DNA of 64,000 nucleotides from Chlorobiota bacterium (GTDB taxonomy: Bacteria; Bacteroidota; Ignavibacteria; Kapaibacteriales; NICIL-2): positions 65,527-129,526 of the forward strand of contig JAOAEV010000008.1 of the NCBI GenBank assembly GCA_026416585.1, written 5' to 3'. A program made the translations under genes and the position numbers. A model generated the notes under the pieces. The model was not told the origin of the DNA. It did not search any database and saw only the letters and a program-made list of their open reading frames with translations. Positions 8,853-62,042 of this stretch are shown here, one piece after another (the first letter of the stretch is position 1; each line of letters starts with the position of its first letter).

Positions 8853-8866
8853 ACATGCCTCCCACG

Positions 8867-19697: not shown

Positions 19698-19760
19698 CTG
19701 GACAAGCCTACCCCGATGGGAGACTTGCTATTGGTGTTTCACTATTTTCCCGGTGCCCCA

Positions 19761-27639: not shown

Positions 27640-27650
27640 GATGGATTCTC

Positions 27651-30206: not shown

Positions 30207-30772
30207 GATTCCGGTTGTGTTACATGTCTGCCATTGGCGAAGAGAAGTTGCTCACGGAGCCGCTGAAGCTGACCAACTAGACTTGCGTCCAGTCGTACAT
30301 CATTGCATTCGACAATTAGCCCACCGAGAATCGCCGGCTCGATACGATAGTGAATTTGCGGTGTGCCTCCGAATCGTGTTGCCACAAGCGATTCGATGCG
30401 GGGGTAAATATCGGCAGGTAGCTCTACCGCCGATACCACACGAGCACGAACTATGCCGACGTATTGGTCATACAGTGTAATGAATTGCTCGGCGATTTGA
30501 TCAAGCACGTTTTCACGTCCTTTAGTACAGACCAGCTGCAGGAACGCTCGAAAGAGAGGATGCGTCTGCTCGCCAAAAATCGCGTCGAGTACCGCCTTTT
30601 TGCGCTCGGCTGCGATAACAGGATTCCGCAACAGTGCGCGCAGTGGTGCCGATGCTCCCAATGCAATGTGGAATAACTCGACCGATTGCATGACCTGGTC
30701 GAGTGCACCGGCATTGAGTGCTGCATCGAGCAGCGATTGTGCATAACGTTTTGCGACACGGGCGTTTCGCAT
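30203..30772 (-). CDS. atpH: F0F1 ATP synthase subunit delta (OSCP)
   Basis: Start at [15 protein letters not shown], the typical delta N-terminus. The ORF-track start at 30931 would overlap atpF. Confidence 0.8.
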
Positions 30773-30785
30773 CGGGTACCTCGTG

Positions 30786-31283
30786 TCAATTTGCTCGTTC
30801 CAGTTGCGCCAGCGACTGTTCGACGAGTCGCCGGTGCTGCTCACTATCGAGCTGCTGTGCAAGCAATCTCTGCGCTGCTTGGAGAGCAAGCTCTGCAACT
30901 TCGCCTCGAAGCGCAGCGCGTGCGTCGGCAATCATGCGTTCGATTTCGCGCTCAGCTTCGCGGAGCTTCTCCTGCTTGACAAGCTCTCCTTCCTCGGCAG
31001 CCTTTGTGACGATGCGTTCAGCTTGTTGTCGGGCATTGCGCAGCAGTTCAACCATTTCCGCGTGTGCACGTTTACGCTGCTCTTCAGCGTCGGCAAGCAG
31101 GCGCTGCGCCTCGGAACGAGCATGTTCTGCTGCGCGCAGAGACTCAGCGATTGTCTGTTCGCGACGTTCGAGTGCCACACGAAGCGGTTTATACCCGAAT
31201 TTGGCGAGGATAAACAGGTACAAACTAAAGTTGACGAGCGTCCAGATTATCAACCCTGGACTTATCTGCAGCAATCCTTCCAT
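30786..31283 (-). CDS. atpF: F0F1 ATP synthase subunit b
   Basis: 165 aa with a single N-terminal TM helix and a long charged coiled-coil. Confidence 0.85.
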   Translation of the reverse strand: MEGLLQISPGLIIWTLVNFSLYLFILAKFGYKPLRVALERREQTIAESLRAAEHARSEAQRLLADAEEQRKRAHAEMVELLRNARQQAERIVTKAAEEGELVKQEKLREAEREIERMIADARAALRGEVAELALQAAQRLLAQQLDSEQHRRLVEQSLAQLERAN

Positions 31284-31337
31284 TACGCACCGAAAAAGTA
31301 GTGGAGACTTGGTACTGCGGCTGTGAGAGCCTTAGGA

Positions 31338-31568
31338 TTATCCCTTCAGCGCAAGGAAAATACAGACGACCAATGCAAAGAGCGCAACCCCTTCGATCAA
31401 GGCTGCACCGATGATCATTGTCGTTCGGACGTCACCTGCTGCTTCGGGTTGGCGTGCACCAGCTTCCAACGCTGCGGCTGCCAACCGCCCAATTCCATTA
31501 CCGACACCCAACACAGTGATACCGCAACCGATACCAGCTGCCAACCACGCAAGACCATAACCGTCCAT
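31338..31568 (-). CDS. atpE: F0F1 ATP synthase subunit c
   Basis: 76 aa two-helix hairpin with a GxGxGxG helix and the conserved carboxylate Glu (ALIEGVALF). Confidence 0.92.
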   Translation of the reverse strand: MDGYGLAWLAAGIGCGITVLGVGNGIGRLAAAALEAGARQPEAAGDVRTTMIIGAALIEGVALFALVVCIFLALKG

Positions 31569-31598
31569 CGAAACAACTCCGAAAAAAGTTCAACAAAC

Positions 31599-32597
31599 TT
31601 AGAGCGATACTGCTGTGTGATGTTCATCATGGTCATGCGCATGGTCACCCAGCGCCAAACCGACGAACACCGCTGTCAGCACAGTGAATATGTATGCCTG
31701 CAAAAAGCAGACGAGCGTTTCCAACAGGTAAATAAAAATCGAGAAGCCCACAGACATTGGGGCAACGAATATCGAACGGAAGTAGAAAATCAACCCAATG
31801 AGCGAAAGCAAAATAATGTGCCCCGCCGACATGTTTGCGAACAAACGAACCGTCAGCGCAAACGGTTTTGTGAACAGACCCAAAATTTCGATCGGTACCA
31901 TGATTGGTGCCAAGTATGCCGGTGCACCACCGAGTAAGTGATGGAGCCACCCGTTGATACCAATCTCGCGTATCGCCAAGCCATTGATCACCACAAATGC
32001 CGTTATCGCCAGTGCTGCTGTCGTTCCGATAGCGCCTGTCGCCGTGTGCATTCCTGGCAATAACCCAAGAAGATTCAGTACTAAAATGAACAGGAATAGC
32101 CCGACAAAATATGGCATAAATTGCCGTACCAGCCGTTCAGACCGGAGGTTCGGTCGAACAACTTCGTCGCGTATGTACACAACGATTGCCTCCAATGCAT
32201 TTTGCAGTCCACGTGGTGGCATAAGCGGATCACGCCGATATCGCCGCCCCGCTACAAAAAAGAGCGCAAGAACGATAAGCATTCCGATCCACTGGAAAAC
32301 AACAAGGTTTGTCACCGATAAGTCAAGAGCTGGCGATGCACCATCAGTTGCACGAACAATATGCCCCTTGCTAATGCGGTATTCCCCCTCTTGCTCCATC
32401 GCATGGGCATTGCGATAAAAGTGCCACCTGCCGCCATCATAGAGCACAACAGGTAGCACGTCCGATGTCGTAAATGCAATGTTCAACTCATGATGATCGC
32501 CCAGTTCCTGCAGCAGGTGCGGAATAACCTGGCCCGGAGGTATTTCCTCCGCGTGTGCATGCTGTGTTGCCAACGTGTCAGTTGCAGTCGAACTCAT
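31599..32597 (-). CDS. atpB: F0F1 ATP synthase subunit a
   Basis: 332 aa polytopic protein with the conserved Arg region (LTVRLFANMSAGH). Confidence 0.9.
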   Translation of the reverse strand: MSSTATDTLATQHAHAEEIPPGQVIPHLLQELGDHHELNIAFTTSDVLPVVLYDGGRWHFYRNAHAMEQEGEYRISKGHIVRATDGASPALDLSVTNLVVFQWIGMLIVLALFFVAGRRYRRDPLMPPRGLQNALEAIVVYIRDEVVRPNLRSERLVRQFMPYFVGLFLFILVLNLLGLLPGMHTATGAIGTTAALAITAFVVINGLAIREIGINGWLHHLLGGAPAYLAPIMVPIEILGLFTKPFALTVRLFANMSAGHIILLSLIGLIFYFRSIFVAPMSVGFSIFIYLLETLVCFLQAYIFTVLTAVFVGLALGDHAHDHDEHHTAVSL

Positions 32598-34067: not shown

Positions 34068-35414
34068 CTAATACCCACGGAGTCGCAATTGTCGGATAAT
34101 ACGATCGGCATAAACGTACTCAACATTGCCGAATACTTCACTCTCCGGCAGCACAATCAACTCACCTTCCGTTGCAATAACACTGGGATCGTACGCAGTA
34201 TTGGATAGGACTGTTGCTTCTTCTGGACGAAATTCGTTATCGACATCGGTAATGGTAACAATTGCACCTATATGTTTCGTACTGCGGTCCATCGGCATCA
34301 AATCGCTCGAGAGCATTAGCCATGGAATGCGCAGACGAACTATATAGCCATGCTGCTGACGCATAGCATGAATAGCGACATCTGCGAATGCTTTCATACG
34401 CAGCCGGGTCAACATGCTACTATCGTTGACGAGCAGTATTGCTCTCGGTAGCTGCTGTTGAAAATTACCAAAATGAATGCTCAAACCGACCAGTGGTGCA
34501 TCTGAACGTCTCCGTATCGTAATGCCGCGTTTTTCTCGTCGTACAGCAATGCTCGGTAGCGTCGAATCCGACACAAACAAATCAAACCATAACTCTAACC
34601 GATCTGACGGACACGTGTCACAGTATGCAATAACGACTTCATCGTCTCGCACTGCAACAGTTAGATACAAATAACTTGTGTCATACACTCCCGCTAACGT
34701 CATTGAGCAATCATCTGGACCACTCCAGTAGTATGCACCGCGCTGGACATAATCAACACTTGCCACATGAGCTCTCCGCTGATAACCATGCCCCGGAATT
34801 ACACCACGGGGATAGATGGGTACAAGACTACATTTTCGCTCAAGCACCGGATTACCGCTGAGTGTCGTTGTCCACTGCTCCCGTATTTCGAGTCCTGCAT
34901 AGCTGAGAGTTTGATCAAGTGTGTAGCTGCCAAGCCGTCGCGTCCGATATTCAGTGGCTGTCACCAGTGCGATACCATCGAAACGATACCCGGTTATTCT
35001 CCAGTTGAATTGCTGTAACTTCTCCGTGATGTAGCATATTCCATAGCGTATGACAACACCGACTTCCAGTGGAAGCTCAACAAAGCGGTATTCTTTCGTG
35101 GCAATGTGGGTCAAATAACCGTCCACGTCCACGAACAAATAAACCCATAAGCGCTTCCCTTTTTCAGCACGATGACGCACAACGCACGCCAAATCGTAAT
35201 TTCCATCACCGGAGAAATCCCCCGCATCCCATGAGTAGAACGTTGTGCCACGGGCATCTGAAAACACCGTATCGAGGTCACTAATAAGTTCCCGATCGAA
35301 GTATAACTCGAGTTTTCGATAGAATTCATCACGTGTCATGCCGGACTGCGCCAGAGACAAAGTTGTCAGCATGACACCAATGACGAGCGCAGCAAGCGTC
35401 TTACAGTGCCTCAT
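34068..35414 (-). CDS. hypothetical secreted protein
   Basis: Internal Met start (MRHCKTLAALVIGVMLTTLSLAQSG) with a signal peptide. The longer form would overlap the upstream GNAT gene by 167 bp. No recognisable domain. Confidence 0.45.
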   Translation of the reverse strand: MRHCKTLAALVIGVMLTTLSLAQSGMTRDEFYRKLELYFDRELISDLDTVFSDARGTTFYSWDAGDFSGDGNYDLACVVRHRAEKGKRLWVYLFVDVDGYLTHIATKEYRFVELPLEVGVVIRYGICYITEKLQQFNWRITGYRFDGIALVTATEYRTRRLGSYTLDQTLSYAGLEIREQWTTTLSGNPVLERKCSLVPIYPRGVIPGHGYQRRAHVASVDYVQRGAYYWSGPDDCSMTLAGVYDTSYLYLTVAVRDDEVVIAYCDTCPSDRLELWFDLFVSDSTLPSIAVRREKRGITIRRRSDAPLVGLSIHFGNFQQQLPRAILLVNDSSMLTRLRMKAFADVAIHAMRQQHGYIVRLRIPWLMLSSDLMPMDRSTKHIGAIVTITDVDNEFRPEEATVLSNTAYDPSVIATEGELIVLPESEVFGNVEYVYADRIIRQLRLRGY

Positions 35415-35892
35415 TAGCAAGCCGGGCAAATTCGACGTCATCGAGGCGGTAGAGCTGCCATTGGGATAAACACCGAGCACCGAGTGCGCGATAGAAGCTA
35501 TGAGCTGCTTCGTTCCAATCGAGAACGAGCCATTCCATGCGCCCACAACCGCGCTCCATCGCAACACACGCCAGGTATTGCATTAGTGCACGTCCGACAC
35601 CTTGTCCGCGCCACTGTGGTAGGACGAAGATGTCCTCTAAAAATAGCGTTGATGCCGCACGAAACGACGAGTATGTTTCAAAGAATATGCAGTAGCCACA
35701 TAAGGCATCGCCCAGATAAGCTAGGAGCGCACTGTACCGTGGTGGGCTGTGCTCGAAGCAATCACGGAAAAGTCGCTGATGAGCATCATGGTCAGGTGGC
35801 ACAAGCCGTTCGTATTCTGCCAGTGCACAGATGAGCTGAAAGAAATCATCGAAGCGCTCTGGAGTCAGTGGTGCGATCCGAACAGCGTTCAT
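35401..35892 (-). CDS. GNAT-family N-acetyltransferase
   Basis: 163 aa with the acetyl-CoA binding motif (QWRGQGVGRALM). Confidence 0.8.
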   Translation of the reverse strand: MNAVRIAPLTPERFDDFFQLICALAEYERLVPPDHDAHQRLFRDCFEHSPPRYSALLAYLGDALCGYCIFFETYSSFRAASTLFLEDIFVLPQWRGQGVGRALMQYLACVAMERGCGRMEWLVLDWNEAAHSFYRALGARCLSQWQLYRLDDVEFARLANEAL

Positions 35893-38602: not shown

Positions 38603-39064
38603 CTAACCAACAATAATGCTAATGATGCGAACAATTTGCCGACCGACGAGTGCGTAGCTCCCAACCAGCAAACACCAGGTGAAGGTAACTGCGAACCACC
38701 CGCGGGATGAATGACGTCGGCAAAGGACATCAAAAAGGGAGGCATAGCCACCAGCAACAACATCATTCCAGCTAATTAATTGCGGAGAAACGTTCTGCGC
38801 TCGAGCGAGTGCAAGCACACATTCTGCTCGGCGAAGCTGGCGGCGAAAGTCATAGCCCCAGAGAGTCAGCAGTAACAAGTACACCTGATACTGCACCAGA
38901 GAAAATGACTGCCGCTCACTCGGTTGAATTTCGACCAACACAAGCGGCAGCCACATCATTCCTGCAAGCGCGAACGCCATCCGGACAAGTCTGCCAAGCA
39001 CGCGACGTTCGGCAACCCATGCTCCACCGAGCACGTGTTCGGTTACTGGAGGTATTCGGCGCAT
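38603..39064 (-). CDS. hypothetical membrane protein
   Basis: 153 aa with 3-4 TM helices. No recognisable domain. Confidence 0.4.
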
Positions 39065-45564: not shown

Positions 45565-46778
45565 GTATTTGGCTCTTTGCACTTGCACTCGTATCAGCAA
45601 CTGCACAAGAGAACGAACTACCGAAAATCACGCGCAAATGGCGCGTACCGGGTGAGGTCAATGCTCATCAACCAGTGGTTGCACCGGTTCTATCACCCGA
45701 TGGGAGTGTCTTGTACTTTTCGCGCAAGTACTATCCCGGTAACATCGGTGGGTCGAGTGATCCTGATGATATTTGGCTAGCCCATCGCACGAGCGATTCG
45801 ACATGGGGCACACCACAACGACTCGACGTCCTCAACACACCCAATAGCGATGTGCTGTTCGGCTTTGCTGCCGACGGAAAAACCGCACTTGTCCAGCGAG
45901 GCAGCGGTGGCGGGGAAACTGAGCAGTTTGTACTCGCACGCGAAATCAACGGCAGATGGTCATTCGAGCCAATCACGATCGAAGGTTACACCAATCACTC
46001 CAGCTACTACTATGCGTTTATGACGCCTGACATGCGGACTCTGGTTTTATCGCTCGAGGGTCCCGACACTCGCGGCGGACTTGACCTCTACGTTTCACAC
46101 CGCATCGGTGAATCGCTCCATTGGTCCACACCACAGAATCTTGGCTCGACGGTGAACTCATCTGGCATGGAGTCGTCGCCATTCTTAGCACGAGACGGAC
46201 GTACACTGTACTACGCATCGAGCGGCTTTGCCTCCAACGGCAAGTATGACATCTACATGACACGCCGTCTCGACGATTCGTGGCAACAGTGGTCCGAACC
46301 TGTTCGACTTCCGCCACCGATCAACACCGATGAGATGGACCTGTGCTGGTGGCTGTTCCCCACTGGCGATACCGCCGTATATGTCTCCACCGACAACGGC
46401 ACACGACGCATGGGGATATACCTCGCGATACTGGAAAAGCAATATCAACCGTTGCCGATACGCTCGTGGCAAGTCCGCTTCGATTTCAACAGTGCAGTAC
46501 TTTCCCCACAACCAATTCCCGATAGCATCGTTGCTCTGCTTCGCACGGCACGGAACATTCGTCTTGCGGGGCACACCGACTCTATCGGAGCCGATCAGTA
46601 CAACCAACGTTTATCTCAAGCACGGGCACGTGCAGTACGCAATTGGCTGGTCGAACGTGGGCTTTCACCTCAGCGGATCACCGTTGCTGCCTACGGTCGT
46701 CATCGCCCGATTGCACCGAACAGCACCGATGCTGGGCGTATGCTCAATCGCCGTGTTGAAATTGAGTGGGAAGACTAA
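45549..46778 (+). CDS. OmpA-family protein with N-terminal TolB/PD40-like beta-propeller region
   Basis: Signal peptide, PD40-like repeats (LYFSRK, DLYVSHR, LYYASSG, DIYMTRR), and a C-terminal OmpA peptidoglycan-binding domain (GHTDSIGADQYNQRLSQARA...NRRVEIEW). Confidence 0.8.
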   Translation: MWTHLSIWLFALALVSATAQENELPKITRKWRVPGEVNAHQPVVAPVLSPDGSVLYFSRKYYPGNIGGSSDPDDIWLAHRTSDSTWGTPQRLDVLNTPNSDVLFGFAADGKTALVQRGSGGGETEQFVLAREINGRWSFEPITIEGYTNHSSYYYAFMTPDMRTLVLSLEGPDTRGGLDLYVSHRIGESLHWSTPQNLGSTVNSSGMESSPFLARDGRTLYYASSGFASNGKYDIYMTRRLDDSWQQWSEPVRLPPPINTDEMDLCWWLFPTGDTAVYVSTDNGTRRMGIYLAILEKQYQPLPIRSWQVRFDFNSAVLSPQPIPDSIVALLRTARNIRLAGHTDSIGADQYNQRLSQARARAVRNWLVERGLSPQRITVAAYGRHRPIAPNSTDAGRMLNRRVEIEWED

Positions 46779-48417
46779 CCGGATGCATCGCACTGAAAGG
46801 CGATTGATACGCACTGGCCGTCATGATTGGTTGCGAAAGTTCTGTTGGTGGTGATTGCCCCATCGCGTGATAGGCTTGAACGACGTGATAGCGAAACAAT
46901 TCATCGAAGACGTGCTGAAATGCACTGCGATGTTCGTCACCGAACCACCAAAACCAATCACTTCCTTCCGCGGTGAGCAGGTGACGGTATGCCAGTGCGT
47001 ATGCACTCGGATCGAGGAACCTTGCATGAGTATCCAGGAGAGTGCGAGCCTCACGTAATATCTCCCATGCTCGCCGATCATCAGGATGGCCAATCCAAAT
47101 TCGGAAACTCCCACCAATCCATGACCCTGCGACAATATGATCGAGAGTTGTCGTGGAGTGATCGGCAAGCGCTTGTTGGGCAACATCGCTGAAAGTGACC
47201 GTTTCGAACTCTTCGCTTTTGCTCAGCATGTCGTAGAGCGCACGGAGGAATGGCTCACCGTTGCGTTCGTAGTACTCCCAGCAGTTTTCTCCATCGAGGA
47301 TTACTGGGACAACTGCCGTCCGAAGGAAATCACGCCCGTGTTGTTGTATCAACGTTGTGCGGATACGGCGTAAGCGCTCTACAAAATCGGCAACCGCATC
47401 ACGCGCGTTCCACGTGCTGTACACGAAACCGATTGCGTCGCTCAATTCCGAATTGCGGAAGAGCACAGCAATTCGACGACCATTTCGCTTCCACACGAAT
47501 GGGCGGTAACATTGGTCTGACTCTCTGTCGCCAAGAGTACGCCGAAGAATTGCACAATCACTCGCTGTCCACTCGATACCACATTCGGCAAGAACATCGA
47601 GTGCATCATCGCTTATGCCGCCTTCGCTCAGCCACATTCCCCGTGGCGTAATTCTAAAGTATCGTTGCATTGCATCGAGCGCACGGCGCGTATGCTCGAC
47701 GGCATCACAGCGCCAAGAGAATGGCGGTTCAAGCGGCTCGATGTCCGAGTCGGATTGTTTTATTGCATCGCTCGAACAGACCAGCGGTAAAATTGGGTGA
47801 TAATACGGCGATGTCGCTAGTTCTGCACTCCCGCCACGTACCAGATTGCGTAACCGTTGGAATACCGCTACCAATAAGCACCGCTCGAGCGCAACAAGAC
47901 GCTCGCGATCATCGGAAGTAAAATCCCGTCCGCGTGCAAGCATGTTTTCCACCGACTGAATGCGTCGCGCTGTCTCGCCGAGCCATGTCAACCGCATCCA
48001 CACTTGCAAATCGCGCCATTCGGATTGCCCCCACGTTTTGTGCTTGTCATTAGCAGCATCATCACGTAGTTGCCGGTACCGAACATATGGATTGATCATG
48101 CGCTCGGCATTGCCTACAAATGCCCAACGCAGTAATCGCAGACGTTCATCATCGCCTGCTGTTGCTCTATCCATCGCAGAGAGAACGCCGCACTCATCCT
48201 CAATTCGACCATTACAGTAGTCATCAAGTTGTTCAGCAAGAATTGGCGTGACATTATACGTTAGCCGCAAGGTTGGGAAATCGCGGTGAATTGCAGGTAG
48301 CTCGGCATAATCCTTTGTTGCATGCAGACGAACCCATGGGAGGACGGCTTGGTTCCCAACACGATAATCAGGCTGGTGGAAGTGCCACAAAATTGCGACG
48401 CGCAGGCGGTGGTTCAT
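46744..48417 (-). CDS. glycoside hydrolase family 57 protein (alpha-amylase/branching-enzyme-like)
   Basis: 557 aa with the GH57 N-terminal signature (ILWHFHQPDYR) and conserved catalytic-region motifs. Confidence 0.75.
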   Translation of the reverse strand: MNHRLRVAILWHFHQPDYRVGNQAVLPWVRLHATKDYAELPAIHRDFPTLRLTYNVTPILAEQLDDYCNGRIEDECGVLSAMDRATAGDDERLRLLRWAFVGNAERMINPYVRYRQLRDDAANDKHKTWGQSEWRDLQVWMRLTWLGETARRIQSVENMLARGRDFTSDDRERLVALERCLLVAVFQRLRNLVRGGSAELATSPYYHPILPLVCSSDAIKQSDSDIEPLEPPFSWRCDAVEHTRRALDAMQRYFRITPRGMWLSEGGISDDALDVLAECGIEWTASDCAILRRTLGDRESDQCYRPFVWKRNGRRIAVLFRNSELSDAIGFVYSTWNARDAVADFVERLRRIRTTLIQQHGRDFLRTAVVPVILDGENCWEYYERNGEPFLRALYDMLSKSEEFETVTFSDVAQQALADHSTTTLDHIVAGSWIGGSFRIWIGHPDDRRAWEILREARTLLDTHARFLDPSAYALAYRHLLTAEGSDWFWWFGDEHRSAFQHVFDELFRYHVVQAYHAMGQSPPTELSQPIMTASAYQSPFSAMHPVSLPTQFQHGD

Positions 48418-50381
48418 TATCGTGTAACAGCAAGTGGCGTAACATAGAGCCGCCCACGAATGCGAGCACGTACATAGTACGTACCCGACGCCAATTGCTC
48501 TGTTGAAAATACCGAAATCTGCGATGGTGGGATGGTCGCCACCACGGCACCATGCACATCGTAAATGCGGATCGATTCGTCAGGCACCAGAGCCAGCACA
48601 ATCCAAACTGTGCTGGTGGCTGGGATCGGCCGAATATTGATTGCATCCTCATTATCGGTCAGCTCGACATTACTCACCATCGGCACCGATGCCAACGACA
48701 CAAGAGAACGCACCGAACGCCCAATATTCAGCGCGATCGACGTGAATGCACCGAGCGAATCGAACTCAATGGTCATCTCCTTTGCGGTGTTTATGACTGT
48801 GCGATGATTAGTATCGCTGCGCCCAATAAAACTCAACTCGAGCGGCAACGTGGTGTATACACCGAGAGAGTCCGCCTGAATTTGACGGATATGAACAGTA
48901 GCTTTCCATCCATGCTGGGATGGGGTACGGAGTGCTTCAATCGCCAGCACAGGCCATCCTTTCCCACGAATCCACTCATCGAAGAATCGCCGCACAAAAT
49001 CCTCGCGTCCACTCATTGCAGCAAGTGTGCGCACCAGTGTGTCAATCGTGACGTTGCCATAGCGGAACCGCTCCAATAGATGCCGACACCATACAAAAAA
49101 CACACTATCGCCGATAGCCCATCGGAGCATACCGAGTACTGCTGCACCCTTTTCATAAATCACGTGCGGATAATTCGACGACGGCGGGGTACGGTCAAAA
49201 TCATACATCGGCAGGATGCCTTCAAACATCGGGTTGCCAGGCTTGGCATATTGATTCAAGTAATTACTGATCTTGCGCTGCTGTTCGTTGAGATACGCAG
49301 CAAAGCCACTCAGTTGCTCGCGCCAGAGCGATTCACAGAACGTCGCAAAGCTTTCGTTGAACCACGCGTCCCGGAAATCCAACGGCGTAACGCAATCACC
49401 AAACCATTGATGCGCCAACTCATGCGCGGCGATCAAATTGATCGAGTCTGTCGTGCGAGCCAGTGAAGCTGGATATGAAATCATTGTCTGATGTTCCATT
49501 GCGCCCTTTTGCGTCATCACGTACCCGACCTTCTCGAACGGGTACTTCCCGAACCGAGCCTCGAAGGCACGCACCATCTGTGGGAGTAGCCGAAAGTTTC
49601 GAACAGTTGCAGTTGAATCAGTTCGGCGAGCATACACCACAATTGGTACATCAAGAGCTGAACGATCGTTGATGACACTCACTACAGATGCCGGTAGTGC
49701 CGCAAATGTCAGTAGATACGTCGCCGTTGGAATGTCTGAATGAAAACGATATATCCGCCATCCAAGGCTATCAATTGGGGGCAGCTCTATCCCTCCCGAT
49801 GCAACAACATACGACACCGGCACACGGAAAGCAAGAGAGAAACTGGCTTTGTCCGATGGATGATCGTAGCACGCGAGCCAATGTTGAGTAGCCGATACGT
49901 AATTATTGTAGAACCCTACACCGAGCGCGTACACGATGTTTCCCTCGCGCTGAACACCGCCCCATGAGTAGCCGCTATACGGTGGCTCGCCGGTCATCGT
50001 CCCTCGGTATGTAATGCGCAGCAGGACGGTATCGCCCACGTGGTGCGTCGGTAGTGCTGGTACGGCGTAGTGATATGTTGCATCGGTGGGTGTACCGCGA
50101 GCGAACCATTCGACAGGTATTGCCCTGCCAAACTGCACATACTCGACGCGAACAACCTCTAAACCGCGCAGATGGAAACGCAGCGTATCCGGTGCTCGAC
50201 GCCACCGAACACGCCAGCTACACATGCTTTCTCCAAGAACTGGTAGAGGAAGAGAGTCGAGCGCAATAAAAGCATCGTAGTGAAGCACATCGAACGACTG
50301 CTCGATAAACTGTGTCGGCGACGAAATCTCTTGTGCAAGCGCAAGCGTACCCGCAAAACACGCGATAATGGCAGCTTTCAT
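48417..50381 (-). CDS. pepN: M1-family aminopeptidase N with C-terminal T9SS sorting domain
   Basis: Start at MKAAIIACFAGTLALAQE (signal peptide). HEXXH-(18)-E zinc site (HELAHQWFGD...NESFAT). The C-terminal roughly 80 aa (SGTYYVRARI...) resemble the Por/T9SS C-terminal domain. Confidence 0.8.
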   Translation of the reverse strand: MKAAIIACFAGTLALAQEISSPTQFIEQSFDVLHYDAFIALDSLPLPVLGESMCSWRVRWRRAPDTLRFHLRGLEVVRVEYVQFGRAIPVEWFARGTPTDATYHYAVPALPTHHVGDTVLLRITYRGTMTGEPPYSGYSWGGVQREGNIVYALGVGFYNNYVSATQHWLACYDHPSDKASFSLAFRVPVSYVVASGGIELPPIDSLGWRIYRFHSDIPTATYLLTFAALPASVVSVINDRSALDVPIVVYARRTDSTATVRNFRLLPQMVRAFEARFGKYPFEKVGYVMTQKGAMEHQTMISYPASLARTTDSINLIAAHELAHQWFGDCVTPLDFRDAWFNESFATFCESLWREQLSGFAAYLNEQQRKISNYLNQYAKPGNPMFEGILPMYDFDRTPPSSNYPHVIYEKGAAVLGMLRWAIGDSVFFVWCRHLLERFRYGNVTIDTLVRTLAAMSGREDFVRRFFDEWIRGKGWPVLAIEALRTPSQHGWKATVHIRQIQADSLGVYTTLPLELSFIGRSDTNHRTVINTAKEMTIEFDSLGAFTSIALNIGRSVRSLVSLASVPMVSNVELTDNEDAINIRPIPATSTVWIVLALVPDESIRIYDVHGAVVATIPPSQISVFSTEQLASGTYYVRARIRGRLYVTPLAVTR

Positions 50382-51130
50382 CGTTTCAGTGGTAAGGGAA
50401 CATATGATACCCACTGTGCAAAATACTGCATCCAGTAGCGGCGACATACGATACCATCAAATGCAAGCAAAAGACCCCCGATTAGTGTGGCGACCTCAAT
50501 CCCACTACGCCATGCGATCACAGTGAAAAATGCAATGATCGCCACACCAACTATGTGTGAGGCTGCATGATTGGAGCCATACGGATTCAATGGTACAGCC
50601 GCAAGAAAACTGACACCCAACCAACCGATGAAATTCAACAGCGGCACTCCATAATAGATGCCGTTTTGTTCCCAAACCCACAACCGCATCGGTCCGATCG
50701 CGACAGGATCGATGAGCAAATCAAACATCGTCATGGCGAGCGCGATAATGACCCGTGCACGCCAAGCGTGTTGCGTGATTGTCATCGCCAGCGTCCATGC
50801 ATATGAAAGTAGTACCAGCCATGCTGCAACCATGACAATGGGGACCCCTGCAATCGCTGGTCCCAGCGTTTCGGTGTAGTGATAGCGCCCAAACGGAATA
50901 CCGATAGCTACCCCGACGATTTCACTGATGAGACCGATAGCCGCACCAAGAGCAAGCCGTGCTCCAAGCGGATGTTGATACACCACAATCACCGCCGCTG
51001 CAACCCAGAGAAACAGCATTTCTCCATAGCGTCGGAGTACGGCAAGGTCACTATCGGCAGCAGTGGTAAGACTACCGCCAATCAGAAGAACAGCAAATAG
51101 TGTAGCAAGTATTCTACGAATCCATTTCAT
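50378..51130 (-). CDS. cruF: carotenoid 1,2-hydratase CruF-family membrane protein (Pfam 'carotenoid biosynthesis protein')
   Basis: 250 aa with 6-7 TM helices, the GIPFGRYHYT and DLLIDPVA motifs that I recall as characteristic of the CruF/Caroten_synth family, and a location inside a crt cluster. Confidence 0.6.
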   Translation of the reverse strand: MKWIRRILATLFAVLLIGGSLTTAADSDLAVLRRYGEMLFLWVAAAVIVVYQHPLGARLALGAAIGLISEIVGVAIGIPFGRYHYTETLGPAIAGVPIVMVAAWLVLLSYAWTLAMTITQHAWRARVIIALAMTMFDLLIDPVAIGPMRLWVWEQNGIYYGVPLLNFIGWLGVSFLAAVPLNPYGSNHAASHIVGVAIIAFFTVIAWRSGIEVATLIGGLLLAFDGIVCRRYWMQYFAQWVSYVPLPLKR

Positions 51131-52589
51131 GTCGCTTGATCAGATCAAAAACCAACTTCGACGAAAGCACGACCATCGGCGTACCTCCACCTGGGTGTGT
51201 ACTGCCGCCAACATAGTAAAGCCCACGCACGTTCCGATCCCGCAGCGGATGTCGGAGAAATGCTGTTCGGTACGAGTGCGAAGCAAAGCCGTAGATGGAA
51301 CCTCCGGGCATTCCATATGTGCGTTCAAAGTGTTCTGGTGTCCACACCGAGCGGACAGCGATATCACTTTCGACAATGTGAATACCAGAGCGCTCCAATA
51401 CGCGCATCATCCGTTCCCAAAGCATCGGTATTGCGTGCTCCCACTGACGCCCCTCAACCGCAGGAGCATTTGCCATCACAAACAGTGTCTCGCCACTTGG
51501 CGGTGCAGTCGTTGAGTCGGTTTTACTGGTGACGTTGAGATAGACTGTTGGTTCGCTTGGGAACTCCATGCGGTCGAATAGTTCAACAAATTCGCGCCGA
51601 TAGTCCGTCGAAAATGCAATGGTGTGATGGAACACATCTGCAGGCAATTGCCGACGCAAGCCAATCAAGAACACGACGCCCGACATTGAGCGCTCAGGAA
51701 GTCGTGGTGGCGGCGGCATACCAAGTAACGTGTGTGCTCGTGTCGCATCACCGTTGAATGCTACAACGTCAGCTTCCACGACGTCCCCACTTGCAAGACA
51801 AACGCCACGAACTCGGCGGTTTCTCTCGATAATCGAGACGACATCTGCATTCGTTGCAATCATCACACCACGCTCGCGTAGCGCTCCAAGGATCGTCTCG
51901 ATAATGCGATAAAGTCCGCCGTCAACATACCAACCACCGTGGGCAAATTCAAGATATGGAATAACAAGAAGTGTTGCTGGCGAGCGATACGGTGATGAGC
52001 CGACAAAGGTCGGGTAGCGATTGAAAATCTGCCGGATGTACGAACTATGAATATGCCGTTCAACTGTGCGTGAGTAGTTTCCCCACGCATTGCGCAGCGG
52101 GAACCATCGGAGAGACCTCACAAGTGCTTGTAGCTGCCGCGATGTTGGCAATTCGAACGGGCTACTCTGAAAAAACGTACGTTGGGACAGCTCGAAGAGC
52201 TTTGCTGCTGTTGCCATCAAACGCCAGTAGCCACGACCACCGTCTGGTTCGAGTCGCTCCAACATCGAGGCAATTGCTGGGAGTTTGTCAGGATAGGTAA
52301 TGCGTTCGCCATCAGGAAAACGATACTGTGTCAGCGGCTGCAAACGCCGAAAACGTAAACTACCGGTGCCTACACCACACTCTTCGAACATCTGTCGGAA
52401 CACGTGCGGCAGCGTGATCAATGATGGTCCGGTATCAAAGCGGTAACCGTCTTGTGCGAGAATATTCATTTTTCCACCGGCCTGGTGACTGCGTTCGAGA
52501 ACAGTTACCTGCCACCCGGCGCTGACTGCTCGCAACGCAAGTGATAATCCGCCGAGTCCGGCACCAACGACGATCAATCGTTTTTTCAT
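51114..52589 (-). CDS. CrtI-family carotenoid desaturase/oxygenase (CrtD 3,4-desaturase- or CrtO ketolase-like)
   Basis: Start at MKKRLIVVGAGLGGLS (FAD Rossmann). Phytoene-desaturase family length and C-terminal motif (GGSTHPGGG). Subfamily assignment would need phylogeny. Confidence 0.75.
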   Translation of the reverse strand: MKKRLIVVGAGLGGLSLALRAVSAGWQVTVLERSHQAGGKMNILAQDGYRFDTGPSLITLPHVFRQMFEECGVGTGSLRFRRLQPLTQYRFPDGERITYPDKLPAIASMLERLEPDGGRGYWRLMATAAKLFELSQRTFFQSSPFELPTSRQLQALVRSLRWFPLRNAWGNYSRTVERHIHSSYIRQIFNRYPTFVGSSPYRSPATLLVIPYLEFAHGGWYVDGGLYRIIETILGALRERGVMIATNADVVSIIERNRRVRGVCLASGDVVEADVVAFNGDATRAHTLLGMPPPPRLPERSMSGVVFLIGLRRQLPADVFHHTIAFSTDYRREFVELFDRMEFPSEPTVYLNVTSKTDSTTAPPSGETLFVMANAPAVEGRQWEHAIPMLWERMMRVLERSGIHIVESDIAVRSVWTPEHFERTYGMPGGSIYGFASHSYRTAFLRHPLRDRNVRGLYYVGGSTHPGGGTPMVVLSSKLVFDLIKRHEMDS

Positions 52590-53701
52590 TCCATCACCTG
52601 CTTGGGTCGAATAACACGATAGCGACGATCTTTCCACTCGACGCCACGGCTACTACGCCACCACGACACCACCGCAAGAGCAAGCAGAACGACCTCCGCT
52701 ATGGGGTGCCATAGAATGCTCCAGAGCTTGTGACCAAATCGCAGTGCCAGTACCAGGCGCGATGCCCCAACCGCACACGCTGCAATCAACAACGGTAATG
52801 TCGGTGTGAAGAGAACCGCCATAAATGGTACTGTGAAGACTGCACCGTGAAGTGCAAGCACTACCGGGAAAAGCCACCGTCGCCGAAATCCTGGATAAAA
52901 GTTTTTCTGAAAGCCGCGCCAAATCTCCCCGAAAGTCTGATACATCCGCACATGTACAATCTCTTGCCCATCGCAACACAACGATTTCTCGCCGGATTGC
53001 CTCCAATGCCGCGCCAGAGCCGTGTCTTCGAAAAGCTCTGTACGAACAGCAGAGTGCCCGCCCAGACGGAAATATGTTTGCCGATCGCATAACATGCACG
53101 AGCCATGCGCTAATGCATAGCGCGGGTGATTCGACAGTTGTTGTAGGGGTGAAGGCAGGAGCGTCATTACGTAAAAATCTAACATCGGCATGAGCACACG
53201 CTCAACCGGGGACACCATCTCAATCTTGGGCCATGCCGATAGCAGTGTTGCGTTACATGCACGCGCAGTTGCGATCAACCGCTCGACACTACCGGGGTTT
53301 AGTTGTGCATCCGCATCGAGAAAGAGAAGCCACTGACTCTGTGCCGCTGATGCCAAGCGATAACATGCGTGTGGTTTACCGTACCATCCGTTGGGCAGCG
53401 GTACTGTCTCCAGCACACGAACACGTTGGTCTCGTTGACTCCACGTTTGGGCTACGTAGTGGGTCGTGTCAGTGGACTGGTCATCGTAGATAAGCACTTC
53501 TGCAACGACGTCACCGCAGGCAAGGACACTTTCGATACAACGGCCAAGCACCCCCTCTTCATTCCGCGCTGGAATAAGAACACTGATGTACGTGTCCAGT
53601 ACGCCCACTGGAGAACGTGTACGCAAGAATGCAATCGCATTGATCGTAGCCAGCACGAAAAATGACAATGCTACCACTGCGATAAACCACTCCCCCATCA
53701 C
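52586..53701 (-). CDS. family-2 glycosyltransferase, carotenoid glycosyltransferase CruC/CruG-like
   Basis: 371 aa. N-terminal TM helix, GT2 catalytic region (VLIPARNEE...DDQSTD...DADAQ), several C-terminal TM helices, embedded in the crt cluster. Confidence 0.65.
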   Translation of the reverse strand: MMGEWFIAVVALSFFVLATINAIAFLRTRSPVGVLDTYISVLIPARNEEGVLGRCIESVLACGDVVAEVLIYDDQSTDTTHYVAQTWSQRDQRVRVLETVPLPNGWYGKPHACYRLASAAQSQWLLFLDADAQLNPGSVERLIATARACNATLLSAWPKIEMVSPVERVLMPMLDFYVMTLLPSPLQQLSNHPRYALAHGSCMLCDRQTYFRLGGHSAVRTELFEDTALARHWRQSGEKSLCCDGQEIVHVRMYQTFGEIWRGFQKNFYPGFRRRWLFPVVLALHGAVFTVPFMAVLFTPTLPLLIAACAVGASRLVLALRFGHKLWSILWHPIAEVVLLALAVVSWWRSSRGVEWKDRRYRVIRPKQVME

Positions 53702-54429
53702 TCATCGAATATGATCGATGCAACTTTTTCGGGTGCTTCGTCCAACAGCAAGTGACCTGCGTTTTCGATGGGATGATCGCTCAAAGCACGCAGATAGCGT
53801 CGCCAGATCGGTATGGAGCGACGTACTGCCGCAAATGTTCGCTCTCCCCACACTATTGCAACGGGTTGAATGATCGAAGCATATCGCTGGGGTCCTGGCA
53901 ATTGTGCCAACGCTTTTAGATAGGCACGAGTCACTGCCGCCTGCTTATCAGCGAATGATGCCATCATGTCTGTATCGGCACGGCGCCGAGAACGCAGTGC
54001 TATGTTGACCAGCTTGCGACCAAGTGCTGTTTGGAATGTCATACGATATGCAATTGCTCCGACCGGTTCGCTAACGAAGAAGCGGAAATACCACGGCATG
54101 AACGCGAACAAGTCCAGCGCTATGATTCGGCGTATCCGCTGCGGTATGCGTAATGCCGTCTCCAGCGCAATGACAGCTCCACTGCACGAGCCAATCACAA
54201 TGACTGGCGCAGGAAGCGATTCGATCATGGTAGCAACCAATTCCGCAGTGCGATCGATCCGAAGTGGTTCGATAAGTGGTGTGGCACCATAGCCCGGTAA
54301 ATTTGCTGCGATAAGTCGCCAACGTGGAGGCAATAGTGGCACCAGCGGCGCGAACGTACGATGATCGCCACCCCATCCATGCAGCCCAACGATAATATGA
54401 TCTCCACTACCGTACTCGACTGTGTTCAT
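53698..54429 (-). CDS. alpha/beta-hydrolase fold protein inside carotenoid cluster
   Basis: Start chosen at MNTVEYGSGDHIIVGLHGWGGDH. The full-length ORF would overlap crtI by 358 bp. HGWGG oxyanion motif and the nucleophile elbow GSCSG. Confidence 0.6.
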   Translation of the reverse strand: MNTVEYGSGDHIIVGLHGWGGDHRTFAPLVPLLPPRWRLIAANLPGYGATPLIEPLRIDRTAELVATMIESLPAPVIVIGSCSGAVIALETALRIPQRIRRIIALDLFAFMPWYFRFFVSEPVGAIAYRMTFQTALGRKLVNIALRSRRRADTDMMASFADKQAAVTRAYLKALAQLPGPQRYASIIQPVAIVWGERTFAAVRRSIPIWRRYLRALSDHPIENAGHLLLDEAPEKVASIIFDE

Positions 54430-55885
54430 CGCTAACGATACGTTGTGCAACCATCGCGCCACTGAGCACAACCATTGGCAGCCCTGTTCCGGGTGTTGTG
54501 CTCGCGCCAGCATAGTAGAGCCGTGCAACTCTGCGATCTCGATTCGATGGGCGGAACGGCCCGATGTTCCAGAGGTTGTGAGCAAGCCCGAATGCCGAAC
54601 CATCATAAAGTCCAAAGCGCTGCCGCCACTCGTGTGGTGCCCAGACATGCTCGACAACAATATCTTGTGGCGAGATCGCGATGCCGTGCATATCAAGTCG
54701 CTGCAGAACTTCCTGGCGCGATCGCTCGATTGCAGCATCCCAATCGAACGCAGGACCAGCAGCACTCAAGGTCGGAGCAGGCACTAACACAAATACCGTA
54801 CTGCAACCTGCGGGAGCAACACTCGGATCACTTCGAGAGGGTACACAGATGTAAAATGGTAAATCGTCTGGCAATCGGCGGCGCAATTGTGCATACGCTG
54901 TGCGTGGATCGCTCGGCAGAAAAATGCAATGATGGTGTGCTGTGTCTATATTTCGCCGCACGCCCCAATAGAACGTGATGACACCTGGTGTCATGGTCCA
55001 CTGCTGTCGATGGGGTACAGCACCAACAATCATTGTCTGTGTTGTTGGTACATCGACGTTCGACACAACCGCATCAGCCGCGACAATAGTGCCATCCTCA
55101 AGTTCAACACTTCGTGCACGATTGGACTCAATGCGGATTGCACGAACCGGACTATTGCAGAATATTCGAACTCCAATTTCGACTGCACGGCGACGTATTG
55201 CTTCCACCAGAGCATAAATCCCCCCGCGCGGATACCACAGGCCATAGTAGAGCTCACCAAACGGCAAGATGCTGAACGTGCCCGGCAGCTTGTACGGAGA
55301 ACCACCTAAGTACATCGCGTACGAGCCCAGTGCTGCTCGCACTGATTCAGAGCGGAAAAAGCGTGCAAGCTCACGATCGAGTGACCGAAACATGCCCAGC
55401 CTCATCAATCCTTGCTTGGGAACCGGGGCTATCCACTTCCCAATAGTTTCCGCATTCGAGAGCACCAAATAATCGAACAAGAATCGAAAACGCTCTTGAT
55501 TTGCCGATAGAAACGCCGAGAGTTTTGCGTGTGCTGCATCGTCGAACTGCGATAACTGCTCGGCAAGATACTGGAAATCAGAACTCAGTTGTAACTGATT
55601 TCCATTCCGCCAGAAAAAGGTCACCGAAGGATCGAGCGGAAGTAGCTCTACATAGTCGTCCATGCAAGCGCCAGTTACTGCAAAAAGTTGTTCGAACACC
55701 CATGGATAGTTGATAAGCGATGGTCCTGTATCAAAACGAAATCCATTCGTTTCGATGCGATTTGCACGCCCACCGACAAGCGGATTTTGCTCGTACACTT
55801 CTACATCATACCCCATCGTGCACAGGTGAATTGCAGCACTCAACCCTCCTAAGCCAGCACCAATGATCACCACTCGCTGACTCAT
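54407..55885 (-). CDS. crtI: phytoene desaturase (CrtI family)
   Basis: Start at MSQRVVIIGAGLGGLSAA. CrtI-family motifs throughout, C-terminal GASTTPGTG, and a location immediately downstream of crtB. Confidence 0.8.
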   Translation of the reverse strand: MSQRVVIIGAGLGGLSAAIHLCTMGYDVEVYEQNPLVGGRANRIETNGFRFDTGPSLINYPWVFEQLFAVTGACMDDYVELLPLDPSVTFFWRNGNQLQLSSDFQYLAEQLSQFDDAAHAKLSAFLSANQERFRFLFDYLVLSNAETIGKWIAPVPKQGLMRLGMFRSLDRELARFFRSESVRAALGSYAMYLGGSPYKLPGTFSILPFGELYYGLWYPRGGIYALVEAIRRRAVEIGVRIFCNSPVRAIRIESNRARSVELEDGTIVAADAVVSNVDVPTTQTMIVGAVPHRQQWTMTPGVITFYWGVRRNIDTAHHHCIFLPSDPRTAYAQLRRRLPDDLPFYICVPSRSDPSVAPAGCSTVFVLVPAPTLSAAGPAFDWDAAIERSRQEVLQRLDMHGIAISPQDIVVEHVWAPHEWRQRFGLYDGSAFGLAHNLWNIGPFRPSNRDRRVARLYYAGASTTPGTGLPMVVLSGAMVAQRIVSDEHSRVR

Positions 55886-56922
55886 TTGCCATACTCCGGG
55901 GTTAGAAATGCAAGTGGAAGCACCCAATATTTTGACGTTGGCAGGCAAGCGAGTTTGCGATGCCAAGAAACGCTTGCGCGACGCTGTGGGTTACAAGCAC
56001 GTTCTAACATCGTTGTAAGCTCACCATACACCGCTATGCAGGACGAAATCGCAGGAATGCATGAAGGATCGAATGCATCAAGCAACCGCTCTGCATGATG
56101 GTAATGTCGCCACGCAGCTTCCGCGTAACGTCGGATAACGTATTCGGTTGCTTTAGGCTCAGTGCCGGCGATAAAATCTTCAACAGTTGTCCCAGCTTGA
56201 CGTAACAGTTCCTGTGGAACGTAACATCGGCGTCGGTGGTGATCTTCTCGTACATCGCGCAAAAAGTTAGTCAATTGCAGTGCAATTCCGAGTGCTCGAG
56301 CGGACTCTAATGCCTCTTCGATAGAGCGCCCGGGAGCAGCACCATAAACGTAGGTCAGGAAGTAACCAACAACGATCGCGCTGCCATAGATATACCGATC
56401 GATCAAGTCCTCAAAGATTTCAAATGGTTCTGGAGCAATATCAAATTCCATCGCATCAAGAAATGCATGATAGTACTCTGATGGAATTCCATGACGTCGT
56501 ACCAGCTCAGCAAAACCAGCAACAATAGGGTTACAGCCATTGTCGAGACTCTCCCGCAGTGATGGCCGCTGCAGCGCAATAACGTATTGCTCGCGCCATT
56601 GGCACAGAAGACGTCTTTTCTCGTCGGCAGCAAGTGGGAAACTATCTACAACTTCGTCAGGATAACGCACTGCAGCGTAGATGATTTCGACGTCGCGTCG
56701 TTTGTTGCGTGGCAAAAAGCGGGTGACGGTAAAAAAGCTCGTGCTATAGTGACGCAGAACACGCCATGATGCATCTGCAACGATACGGCGTGCATGCTCG
56801 TCGGTGGAAGCTTGACGTGCACGCTGTTCCACGTCAGCAAAAAAGCGAGTCCACTGATTGTACGACCAATGATTCATTCCGCGCTGCATTGAGCCACCTC
56901 GGCTATAAAACCGAGCAGGCAA
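55882..56922 (-). CDS. crtB: phytoene synthase
   Basis: Squalene/phytoene synthase family with Asp-rich motifs (YxxxRxPDExVD, DVREDhhrrRCYVP). The start could be one of the internal Mets at 56892 or 56880. Confidence 0.85.
   Translation of the reverse strand: MPARFYSRGGSMQRGMNHWSYNQWTRFFADVEQRARQASTDEHARRIVADASWRVLRHYSTSFFTVTRFLPRNKRRDVEIIYAAVRYPDEVVDSFPLAADEKRRLLCQWREQYVIALQRPSLRESLDNGCNPIVAGFAELVRRHGIPSEYYHAFLDAMEFDIAPEPFEIFEDLIDRYIYGSAIVVGYFLTYVYGAAPGRSIEEALESARALGIALQLTNFLRDVREDHHRRRCYVPQELLRQAGTTVEDFIAGTEPKATEYVIRRYAEAAWRHYHHAERLLDAFDPSCIPAISSCIAVYGELTTMLERACNPQRRASVSWHRKLACLPTSKYWVLPLAFLTPEYGK

Positions 56923-56949: not shown

Positions 56950-62042
<5,093 letters not shown>

Follow-up and report, generated by a model that had tools for sequence, protein, structure and literature searches.

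We have found that a 64-kb stretch of DNA from a Chlorobiota bacterium of the Kapaibacteriales (64,000 nucleotides, referred to below as the window and numbered from its first letter) carries on its minus strand a compact carotenoid operon of six genes, one of which encodes an unusual α/β-hydrolase (ABH) with a cysteine in place of the nucleophilic serine. The operon is probably a co-transcribed, self-contained pathway to a photoprotective membrane carotenoid, namely an acyclic C40 1-hydroxy-3,4-didehydro 1-O-glycoside whose sugar is acylated by the ABH. The parts of this reading differ in strength: that the pathway leads to a carotenoid glycoside is very likely, that the product is acyclic has slightly better than an even chance, and that the ABH acts as an acyltransferase on the sugar, in place of the enzyme CruD, is a tentative proposal.

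The six genes were identified by direct sequence reading as long minus-strand open reading frames (ORFs) in series between positions 50378 and 56922. In the order crtB to cruF they encode a CrtB-like member of the squalene/phytoene synthase family (56889..55882, 335 amino acids), a CrtI-type phytoene desaturase (55885..54407, 492 amino acids), the ABH (54429..53698, 243 amino acids), a membrane GT2 glycosyltransferase that is CruC/CruG/HpnB-like (53698, or a GTG at 53701, to 52586; about 370 amino acids), a CrtD-like 1-hydroxycarotenoid 3,4-desaturase (52589..51114, 491 amino acids) and a CruF-family polytopic membrane protein, presumed to be a carotenoid 1,2-hydratase (51130..50378, 250 amino acids). 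The five junctions consist, in the same order, of an ATGA overlap, an overlap of 23 nt, one of 1-4 nt, a second ATGA and an overlap of 17 nt, and because every junction overlaps, translational coupling is plausible. The original prediction, made from the letters of the window, had described six consecutive and translationally coupled genes with these identities in this order, and the ORFs and their Pfam matches bear out the identities, the order and the overlapping junctions; only the upstream limit of the cluster shifts, in that position 56922 marks where TTG first occurs in the longest ORF and the likely start of crtB is the ATG at 56889, which has GAGGTG 7 nt upstream. The start of the ABH is backed by the aligned N-termini of 30 homologues. 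The chain of overlaps runs past cruF, since the gene for an M1 peptidase begins at 50381 in an ATGA overlap with the cruF stop codon, and the crtB ATG lies 60 nt downstream of a same-strand amidohydrolase/ligA pair. A scan for promoter and terminator consensus sequences from 45.5 to 63 kb gave counts at or below the shuffled expectation, so that the boundaries of the operon cannot be set from it.

The proteins were scored against Pfam gathering scores and against the equivalog cut-offs of NCBIfam and TIGRFAM, and all six lie above the gathering scores of their own Pfam families. The CrtB-like protein matches SQS_PSY (PF00494) at 194 bits, compared with a gathering score of 26, and has both of the Asp-rich DxxxD motifs (D78EVVD and D212VRED). 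The two CrtI-family proteins match Amino_oxidase at 115 and 67 bits and exceed the cut-off of 238 for TIGR02734 (crtI_fam), the crtI product with 399 bits and the crtD-like product with 331. Among solved structures the crtI product prefers Pantoea CrtI (4DGK, 237 bits) to the CrtD structure 4REP (211 bits) by a small margin; the crtD-like product matches 4REP, a γ-carotene desaturase, at 278 bits and Pantoea CrtI at 159, and its top equivalog matches are CrtD models, at 295 and 286 bits, under their cut-offs of 580 and 500. This second CrtI-family enzyme had been called CrtD- or CrtO-like, and it is the first of these that the structure scores favour; we rejected the CrtO-like alternative because the CrtO model gives 21 bits against a cut-off of 1000 and 4REP is preferred. 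We regard the family-level identities of the six proteins as solid and their orthology to characterised enzymes as presumed only, and we note that the CrtB-like protein and the GT2 may, judging by their scores, belong to clades outside the current curated models.

The GT2 matches Glycos_transf_2 (PF00535) at 83 bits, above the gathering score, and has a D128AD motif together with one N-terminal and three C-terminal hydrophobic segments. Its scores with the CruG model (138 of 600) and with that of the hopanoid-associated HpnB (137 of 379) are indistinguishable and both far under the cut-off. Homologues of the GT2 with 51-62% identity carry the JGI pipeline name 'chlorobactene glucosyltransferase', which is that of the 1'-O enzyme CruC; we treat the name as a lead and not as a test. 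The CruF-like protein matches Caroten_synth (PF04240) at 104 bits, compared with a gathering score of 25, and has eight hydrophobic segments, but it stays under all three CruF equivalog cut-offs (TIGR03460, 94 of 155; NF041333, 62 of 300; NF045693, 56 of 400). The check by hidden Markov models that accompanied the description of these two proteins as a CruC/CruG-like GT2 and a CruF-family hydratase therefore places them in the expected Pfam families but leaves the CruG and CruF equivalog cut-offs unreached. The 1'-hydroxy-2'-O-glycosylated product that had been predicted from them fares worse: such a glycoside requires a 2'-hydroxylase, candidates for which are absent from the operon and from the annotated neighbours of related loci, and the GT2 ties between CruG and HpnB. 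The 2'-O-glycoside is thus unsupported, and the gene content would favour 1-O over 2'-O regiochemistry, by parsimony only.

The ABH matches Abhydrolase_6 at 68 bits, above the gathering score, and has an α/β-hydrolase fold with a cap domain. Its nucleophile elbow is G80-S-C82-S-G84 (family pattern G-[SN]-C-S-G), and so has a cysteine in the position of the serine in G-x-S-x-G. In a profile alignment Cys82 coincides with the catalytic Ser of BioH and His226 with the catalytic His. Cys82 is invariant in an alignment of 31 sequences, and of the 221 family sequences whose alignment spans the site, 209 have a Cys there; multidomain proteins of the Ser type enter the family alignment only at about 120 bits and lower. 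His226 is also invariant among the 31 homologues, and residue 106, which follows strand β6, is always Asp or Glu. The alignment thus points to a candidate triad of Cys82 (54186..54184), Asp106 (54114..54112) and His226 (53754..53752), all on the minus strand. No signal peptide is predicted for the ABH, whose single hydrophobic stretch corresponds to the buried nucleophile strand and helix. Its nearest folds among structure matches are esterases, BioH and perhydrolases, and neither PhaC nor dienelactone hydrolase is among the best 50-60 matches in the PDB. A word-indexed search across 5.8 billion proteins gave 85 hits at E<=1e-5, with scores dropping from 136 to 46 bits past the family, and an exhaustive profile search across 1.84 billion representatives gave 117 clusters at E<=1e-30, of which two further representatives again stand in crt contexts (L088 and L089). 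The ABH is the diagnostic component of the cassette, conserved across phyla, and the sole part without a known role. The original prediction had rightly listed an α/β-hydrolase as one of the six genes but overlooked both this diagnostic status and the replacement of the Ser nucleophile by Cys. A search for papers joining cruF or crtB to an α/β-hydrolase found none, which, the coverage being incomplete, is absence of evidence only. We also note a distant sub-group of the family (P0200-P0231, about 105-125 bits) that has a G-F-C-M-G-E elbow and so keeps the Cys; one of its members, on a 2.4-kb contig (L087), lies directly after a gene for a SPASM-domain (radical SAM-type) protein.

The operon of the window is one instance of a widespread cassette. 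A genome profile scan restricted to one genome per species gave 165 relatives of the ABH, of which the best 80 loci were examined; the taxon labels of metagenome-assembled genome (MAG) records are used as recorded. The order crtB-crtI-ABH-(crtE)-GT2-crtD-cruF is kept in most of 81 related loci, chiefly from Kapabacteria and Acidobacteriota. The nearest relatives of the ABH are from Kapabacteria (55-65% identity), and loci L005-L011 of that group keep the full ten-gene order from ligA to the GH57 gene at 55-86% protein identity. The cassette order is found also in Blastocatellia, Pyrinomonadaceae, Bryobacteraceae and other Acidobacteriota, and the cassette occurs in single MAGs labelled Dehalococcoidia, Hydrogenedentota, Thermodesulfobacteriota, Verrucomicrobiota and Chthonomonadales; in some third-party annotation (TPA) bins labelled Heliobacteriaceae or Clostridia it is arranged as in Acidobacteriota. 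Of the 74 loci with enough upstream sequence, 66 have a CrtI-family gene whose end lies between -60 and +250 nt from the start of the ABH, and a GT2 gene lies no more than 3 kb downstream of the ABH in 49 of the 59 with enough downstream sequence. The search also worked from the other side: identity is 46% or higher throughout the 120 best GT2 homologues, and the three loci whose context was retrieved, two from that list (L085 and L086) and one reached through an ABH representative (L089), carry the ABH cassette. Where GT2-crtD-cruF has moved (L047, L068, L089), the block crtB-crtI-ABH is intact. The cassette is thus a unit with a fixed seven-gene architecture across phyla, and since its borders are formed by unrelated genes in different lineages it fits a self-contained module, which has possibly spread by horizontal transfer. 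In the literature on carotenoid genes of Kapabacteria, Blastocatellia and Acidobacteriota, which we covered incompletely, we found no description of the cassette and no pigment chemistry.

The seventh gene, which is found between the ABH and GT2 genes in 46 loci, encodes a polyprenyl synthase of about 310 amino acids (CrtE). We considered whether this extra gene of the Acidobacteriota might be the missing acyltransferase or cyclase, an idea that its identity as crtE led us to reject. Synthases that make geranylgeranyl diphosphate (GGPP), and not those that make farnesyl diphosphate, typically have small residues four and five positions ahead of the first Asp-rich motif. The cassette enzymes have Ser, Thr or Ala at -4 and -5 before DDLPxMD, and these GGPP synthase-type residues lend indirect support to C40 chemistry.

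In Acidobacteriota the cassette has recurrent flanks: a CarH-like regulator with MerR and B12-binding domains is encoded in 31 loci, a photolyase in 16, an epimerase/DUF1731 protein in 15, an SRPBCC-like protein in 13 and a NUDIX protein in 10. In L001, L013, L016, L033 and about 30 other Acidobacteriota loci, the 7 kb upstream of crtB usually hold a divergent CarH-like gene and genes for the epimerase/DUF1731 protein, a 172-amino-acid SRPBCC-like protein, a photolyase and sometimes TspO. This neighbourhood implies light-induced expression in Acidobacteriota. In the Kapabacteria window none of the CarH-like, epimerase/DUF1731, SRPBCC-like, photolyase and TspO flanks of the Acidobacteriota cassette is present. 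A few Pyrinomonadaceae loci have, between GT2 and crtD, a further gene for a protein of about 166 amino acids (L055:4507-5007, L074:8796-9296, L082:12791-13354 and, in part, L062); this protein, which begins with a signal-like segment and matches no Pfam family, could be a secreted carotenoid- or lipid-binding one.

A Pfam scan of about 56 ORFs in the 64 kb of the window detected no domains of a lycopene cyclase, of a PlsC/LpxL-type (LPLAT) acyltransferase or of a polyprenyl synthase. The original prediction had stated that CruA/CrtY and CruD are not in the window, and at the level of Pfam this holds. The absence is not absolute, because four of the ORFs have no match whatever (19671-20486, 21375-22250, 24204-24731 and 38603-39064) and two have only weak sub-threshold matches. 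One ORF of 499 amino acids (34068-35567, minus strand) has no significant Pfam family and a weak sub-threshold CBM9-like match. A cyclase or LPLAT gene is also missing from the annotated neighbours of about 80 related loci, and the cassette has no aldehyde dehydrogenase and no CrtP-type oxidase. We considered recurrent neighbours without Pfam matches as candidates for a cyclase and rejected them, as one is a soluble SRPBCC-like protein and another set consists of spurious antisense ORFs.

From the gene content we infer a C40 substrate, and the following pathway can be proposed. CrtB would join two molecules of GGPP to give phytoene, which CrtI would convert to lycopene; the CruF-family protein would then hydrate the C1=C2 bond of the ψ-end, giving a 1-hydroxy group, the CrtD-type flavoprotein would introduce the 3,4 double bond, and the membrane GT2 would glycosylate the tertiary 1-hydroxyl. 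The product would be a 1-hydroxy-3,4-didehydrolycopene glycoside or the symmetrical 1,1'-diglycoside, presumably serving in protection from light. Cys82 of the ABH would be loaded with a fatty acyl group, the donor being a thioester or a lipid, and from the resulting acyl-thioester the group would be transferred to the sugar. A cysteine nucleophile gives a thioester intermediate, as in polyhydroxyalkanoate (PHA) synthase, and suits transfer from acyl-CoA or acyl-ACP over hydrolysis. An acyclic product is the most economical choice because no cyclase is found in the window or among the annotated neighbours of the related loci, and the suggestion in the original prediction, that the pigment may be acyclic or that a non-canonical enzyme fills one of the missing roles, is supported. 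Acyl transfer by the ABH is favoured because related carotenoid glycosides are typically fatty-acyl esters and CruD is absent from the cassette; and since cruD stands between cruF::crtB and crtI in Rhodothermus marinus, the tight linkage of crtI and the ABH is compatible with an acyltransferase (PMC7414004). It is possible, and we put it forward tentatively, that the ABH with its putative Cys-His-Asp/Glu triad represents an unrecognised class of carotenoid-tailoring enzyme, most plausibly a thioester acyltransferase that has displaced CruD in the seven-gene cassette. With lower probability it would fill a different gap in the pathway, for example the 2-hydroxylation of oscillol- or myxol-type pigments.

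Several observations weigh against the pathway as we have drawn it. All of the 89 related loci recovered in total come from MAGs or metagenome contigs. crtE certainly lies outside the 64-kb window, and a cyclase or CruD could likewise sit elsewhere in the genome. The CrtB-like protein is below every NCBIfam equivalog cut-off, reaching 94-106 bits with CrtB models whose cut-offs are 480-550, and scores higher with HpnD, a presqualene diphosphate synthase model (135 bits), than with any of them. In the alignment of the ABH family the canonical acid after strand β7 is not conserved, so that the putative triad rests on Asp/Glu106 after β6. Eight ABH loci have no crtI-family gene directly upstream, and seven of the eight lie outside any crt context, the exception (L056) retaining crt genes, and also a CarH-like gene, in its vicinity. 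The seven (L003/L004, L012, L029, L049, L067, L073 and L075) are labelled Myxococcota, Deltaproteobacteria, Bradymonadales, Gemmatimonadota, Zixibacteria and, in one case, an Acidobacteriota MAG, and encode proteins of 36-44% identity with the Cys conserved. Lastly, L013 and L033 keep crtB-crtI-ABH-crtE without GT2, crtD or cruF within 10 kb; neither this pattern nor that of the eight loci is what an obligate role in acylating the sugar would predict. The neighbours of the ABH outside crt contexts are a photolyase, a 408-amino-acid amine oxidase and a platelet-activating factor (PAF)-acetylhydrolase-like gene, a giant tetratricopeptide repeat (TPR) protein of 2100-2600 amino acids (Bradymonadales), or housekeeping genes.

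The alternative explanations overlap, in that some concern the backbone of the pigment and others the ABH. As to the backbone, the operon might be the ψ-end tailoring core of a monocyclic pathway of the salinixanthin or deoxyflexixanthin type, with the cyclase, and possibly a ketolase and CruD, encoded elsewhere and with the ABH accessory or unrelated, which we think rather doubtful. Ignavibacterium album and R. marinus do carry crtY, cruD and a ketolase and make γ-carotene-derived glycoside esters (PMC3362086; PMC5822342, PMC7414004), carotenoid genes can disperse, as is seen from the cruC of R. marinus, which is far from the cluster, and crtE lies outside the present window. However, the lack of a cyclase or LPLAT gene holds for the annotated neighbours of about 80 cassette loci from several phyla, the cassette is set between unrelated housekeeping genes in different lineages, as a self-sufficient module would be, and Thermomicrobium roseum provides a precedent for acyclic glycoside esters made without a cyclase (PMC2615216). 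A C30 pathway, with a dehydrosqualene or presqualene-type synthase as its SQS_PSY enzyme and with diapocarotenoids as the substrates of the two flavoproteins, as in staphyloxanthin-like glycoside esters, is very improbable. The higher score of the CrtB-like protein with HpnD could be read in this way, as could its closest solved structures, which are CrtM dehydrosqualene synthases (53 bits), and the combination of a synthase, two CrtI paralogues, a GT2 and an acyl-handling enzyme, which resembles crtMNPQO. But the HpnD, CrtB and CrtM scores are all far below cut-offs and do not discriminate, the cassette has a GGPP synthase-type polyprenyl synthase in 46 loci, the two paralogues match the CrtI and CrtD of C40 pathways, CruF and CrtD are ψ-end enzymes of C40/C50 pathways, and neither an aldehyde dehydrogenase nor a CrtP-type oxidase is present. 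It is chiefly on account of the crtE and of the C40-type CrtI and CrtD matches that we set the C30 pathway aside.

As to the ABH, it might be a true hydrolase of a light- or oxidative-stress regulon (an esterase, a thioesterase or an enzyme of oxidised-lipid repair) that is co-expressed with the pathway and does not act on the carotenoid. The esterases, BioH and perhydrolases among its nearest folds would suit such a role, the CarH/photolyase neighbourhood of Acidobacteriota also holds genes that are not for carotenoids, and the seven homologues outside crt clusters, one of them beside a photolyase and a PAF-acetylhydrolase-like gene, as well as L013 and L033 with no GT2 nearby, are consistent with it. 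We nevertheless consider this unlikely, for the ABH gene has crtI on one side and GT2 or crtE on the other, with junctions that overlap or nearly abut, in 66 of 74 loci across phyla, its position is kept in Kapabacteria with neither CarH nor photolyase nearby, its family is small and nearly confined to the cassette, and an invariant Cys for Ser is unusual in a plain esterase. A partnership of the ABH with CrtB and CrtI early in the pathway, in substrate delivery, product release or a modification of lycopene (2-hydroxylation or cyclisation) and not on the sugar, is more improbable still. CrtB and CrtI are enough for lycopene formation in well-studied systems, and a carotenoid hydroxylase or cyclase with a hydrolase fold is not known. 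The tightest linkage of the ABH is indeed to crtI, which is directly upstream in those same 66 loci, and crtB-crtI-ABH stays joined where GT2-crtD-cruF has moved or is absent; T. roseum, moreover, carries out 2,2'-hydroxylation to which no enzymes are assigned (PMC2615216). The same position in the operon is, however, that of the acyltransferase gene cruD in R. marinus (PMC7414004).

The chief pigments in the membranes of many non-phototrophic bacteria of the Chlorobi/Bacteroidota group, of Chloroflexota and of myxobacteria are carotenoid glycoside esters, and for several of the tailoring steps that produce them the enzyme assignments are incomplete or lineage-specific. In Kapabacteria and in many Acidobacteriota of soil (Blastocatellia, Pyrinomonadaceae and Bryobacteraceae) the cassette seems to serve as the standard module for carotenoids, and it draws attention to a small enzyme family whose Cys nucleophile is unusual. 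If the ABH is the acyltransferase it would add a third, unrelated way of carrying out this step of the biosynthesis, and, being a soluble catalyst, would be of possible use in making acylated carotenoid glycosides. If it is not, the finding is that of an ordinary carotenoid operon.

The carotenoid genes lie inside a string of ten co-directional genes, all on the minus strand. Upstream of crtB are ligA (62039..59970) and the gene for an amidohydrolase of 1007 amino acids (59973..56950), and downstream of cruF are those for an M1 aminopeptidase with a type IX secretion system (T9SS) sorting tail (50381..48417) and, co-directional and coupled to it, a GH57 protein (48417..46744). We regard these four genes as context; a part for the peptidase or the GH57 protein in the pathway is not evident. 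Elsewhere in the window, a string of F-type ATP synthase genes (a subunit, delta, alpha and gamma) on the minus strand at 26755-32597 has a gene for an NAD-dependent epimerase/dehydratase (27651-28637) between atpA (28638-30206) and atpG (26755-27672); the gene after atpG is radA-like, and atpD and atpC are elsewhere. Two tandem paralogues of an amino-acid permease (484 and 499 amino acids; 7398-10366, minus strand) stand beside topoisomerase I and a Fur-family regulator.

In the mechanism that we propose, the closest parallels to the ABH are enzymes of other pathways. PhaC and dienelactone hydrolase have a G-x-C-x-G elbow and a Cys-His-acid triad, and in PhaC the acyl-thioester is used for transfer. 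The likeness is mechanistic only; the sizes and cap architectures differ, and no specific relation in sequence or fold was detected.

The carotenoid glycoside operon itself is a known kind of system, its nearest analogues being the T. roseum cluster and the salinixanthin and myxobacton pathways. T. roseum has no class of lycopene cyclase and makes acylated acyclic oscillol diglycosides, the genes for which form the cluster trd_1158-1167 (PMC2615216). Like the cassette, that cluster combines crtB and crtI with a CruF-type 1,1'-hydroxylase and a GT2 (CruC). Unlike in the cassette, the acylating activity in T. roseum is attributed to a CruF fusion that carries an LPLAT (CruD) domain, and no α/β-hydrolase is reported; the 2,2'-hydroxyls of its pigments have no counterpart enzyme here, and a separate CrtD is absent from the T. 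roseum description. The salinixanthin-type pathway of Salinibacter ruber and R. marinus (CrtB, CrtI, CrtY, CrtO, CruF, CruC and CruD) proceeds by 1',2'-hydration of the ψ-end, then glycosylation, then acylation, the sequence that is here predicted from the genes (PMC5822342, PMC7414004). These species also have a MerR-type regulator, a photolyase and an epimerase beside their crt genes, as do the cassette loci of Acidobacteriota, and they have an acyl-transfer gene in the crtB/crtI operon, cruD lying in a small operon of R. marinus between cruF::crtB and crtI (PMC7414004); the ABH occupies a comparable position. They differ from the present case in having a cyclase and a ketolase, monocyclic keto-carotenoids and a CruD of the LPLAT type, and R. 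marinus has, besides an unlinked cruC, a fusion of cruF with crtB. Among cultured relatives for which there are data the nearest is I. album, of a non-phototrophic Chlorobi lineage, which shares crtB, crtI, crtD, cruF and a cruC-type glycosyltransferase gene with the window (PMC3362086). It has in addition crtY, crtW and cruD and makes derivatives of 1-OH-torulene and deoxyflexixanthin; the window lacks all three genes and has the ABH instead.

Comparable in regulation as well as in content is the carB operon of Myxococcus xanthus (PMC8156234), which is light-regulated and includes crtE, crtI, crtB, crtD, a 1,2-hydratase gene, a predicted glycosyltransferase gene (orf6) and a putative acyltransferase gene (orf9). 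CarH is encoded next to this operon, which is regulated by CarH and CarA and leads to a myxobacton ester, and an adjacent CarH-like gene is seen also in the Acidobacteriota loci (PMC8156234). M. xanthus differs in using CrtC and not CruF, a CrtYc/Yd cyclase and a monocyclic keto product, and its orf9 product is only a putative acyltransferase that is not described as an α/β-hydrolase. Fatty-acyl carotenoid glycosides are typical of I. album, R. marinus, S. ruber, T. roseum and M. xanthus alike (PMC3362086, PMC7414004, PMC5822342, PMC2615216, PMC8156234), and in Salinibacter, Rhodothermus, Ignavibacterium and Thermomicrobium it is the LPLAT enzyme CruD that acylates the sugar. Unrelated families are already known to perform such acylation, namely CruD/LPLAT, CrtO of Staphylococcus aureus and the Methylobacterium LPLAT META1p3664 (PMC10448405). 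The staphyloxanthin genes crtOPQMN and Methylobacterium META1p3663/3664 resemble the cassette in joining a synthase, CrtI-family enzymes and a GT2 to a final acylation of the sugar (PMC10448405), but these are C30 pathways to a glycosyl ester on a carboxylate, have no CruF or CrtD and use CrtO or an LPLAT as acyltransferase. Among all of these systems, what is distinct in the present one, whose related loci are all from MAGs or metagenomes, is a fixed seven-gene architecture across phyla and, with no LPLAT, a dedicated α/β-hydrolase of the Cys type.

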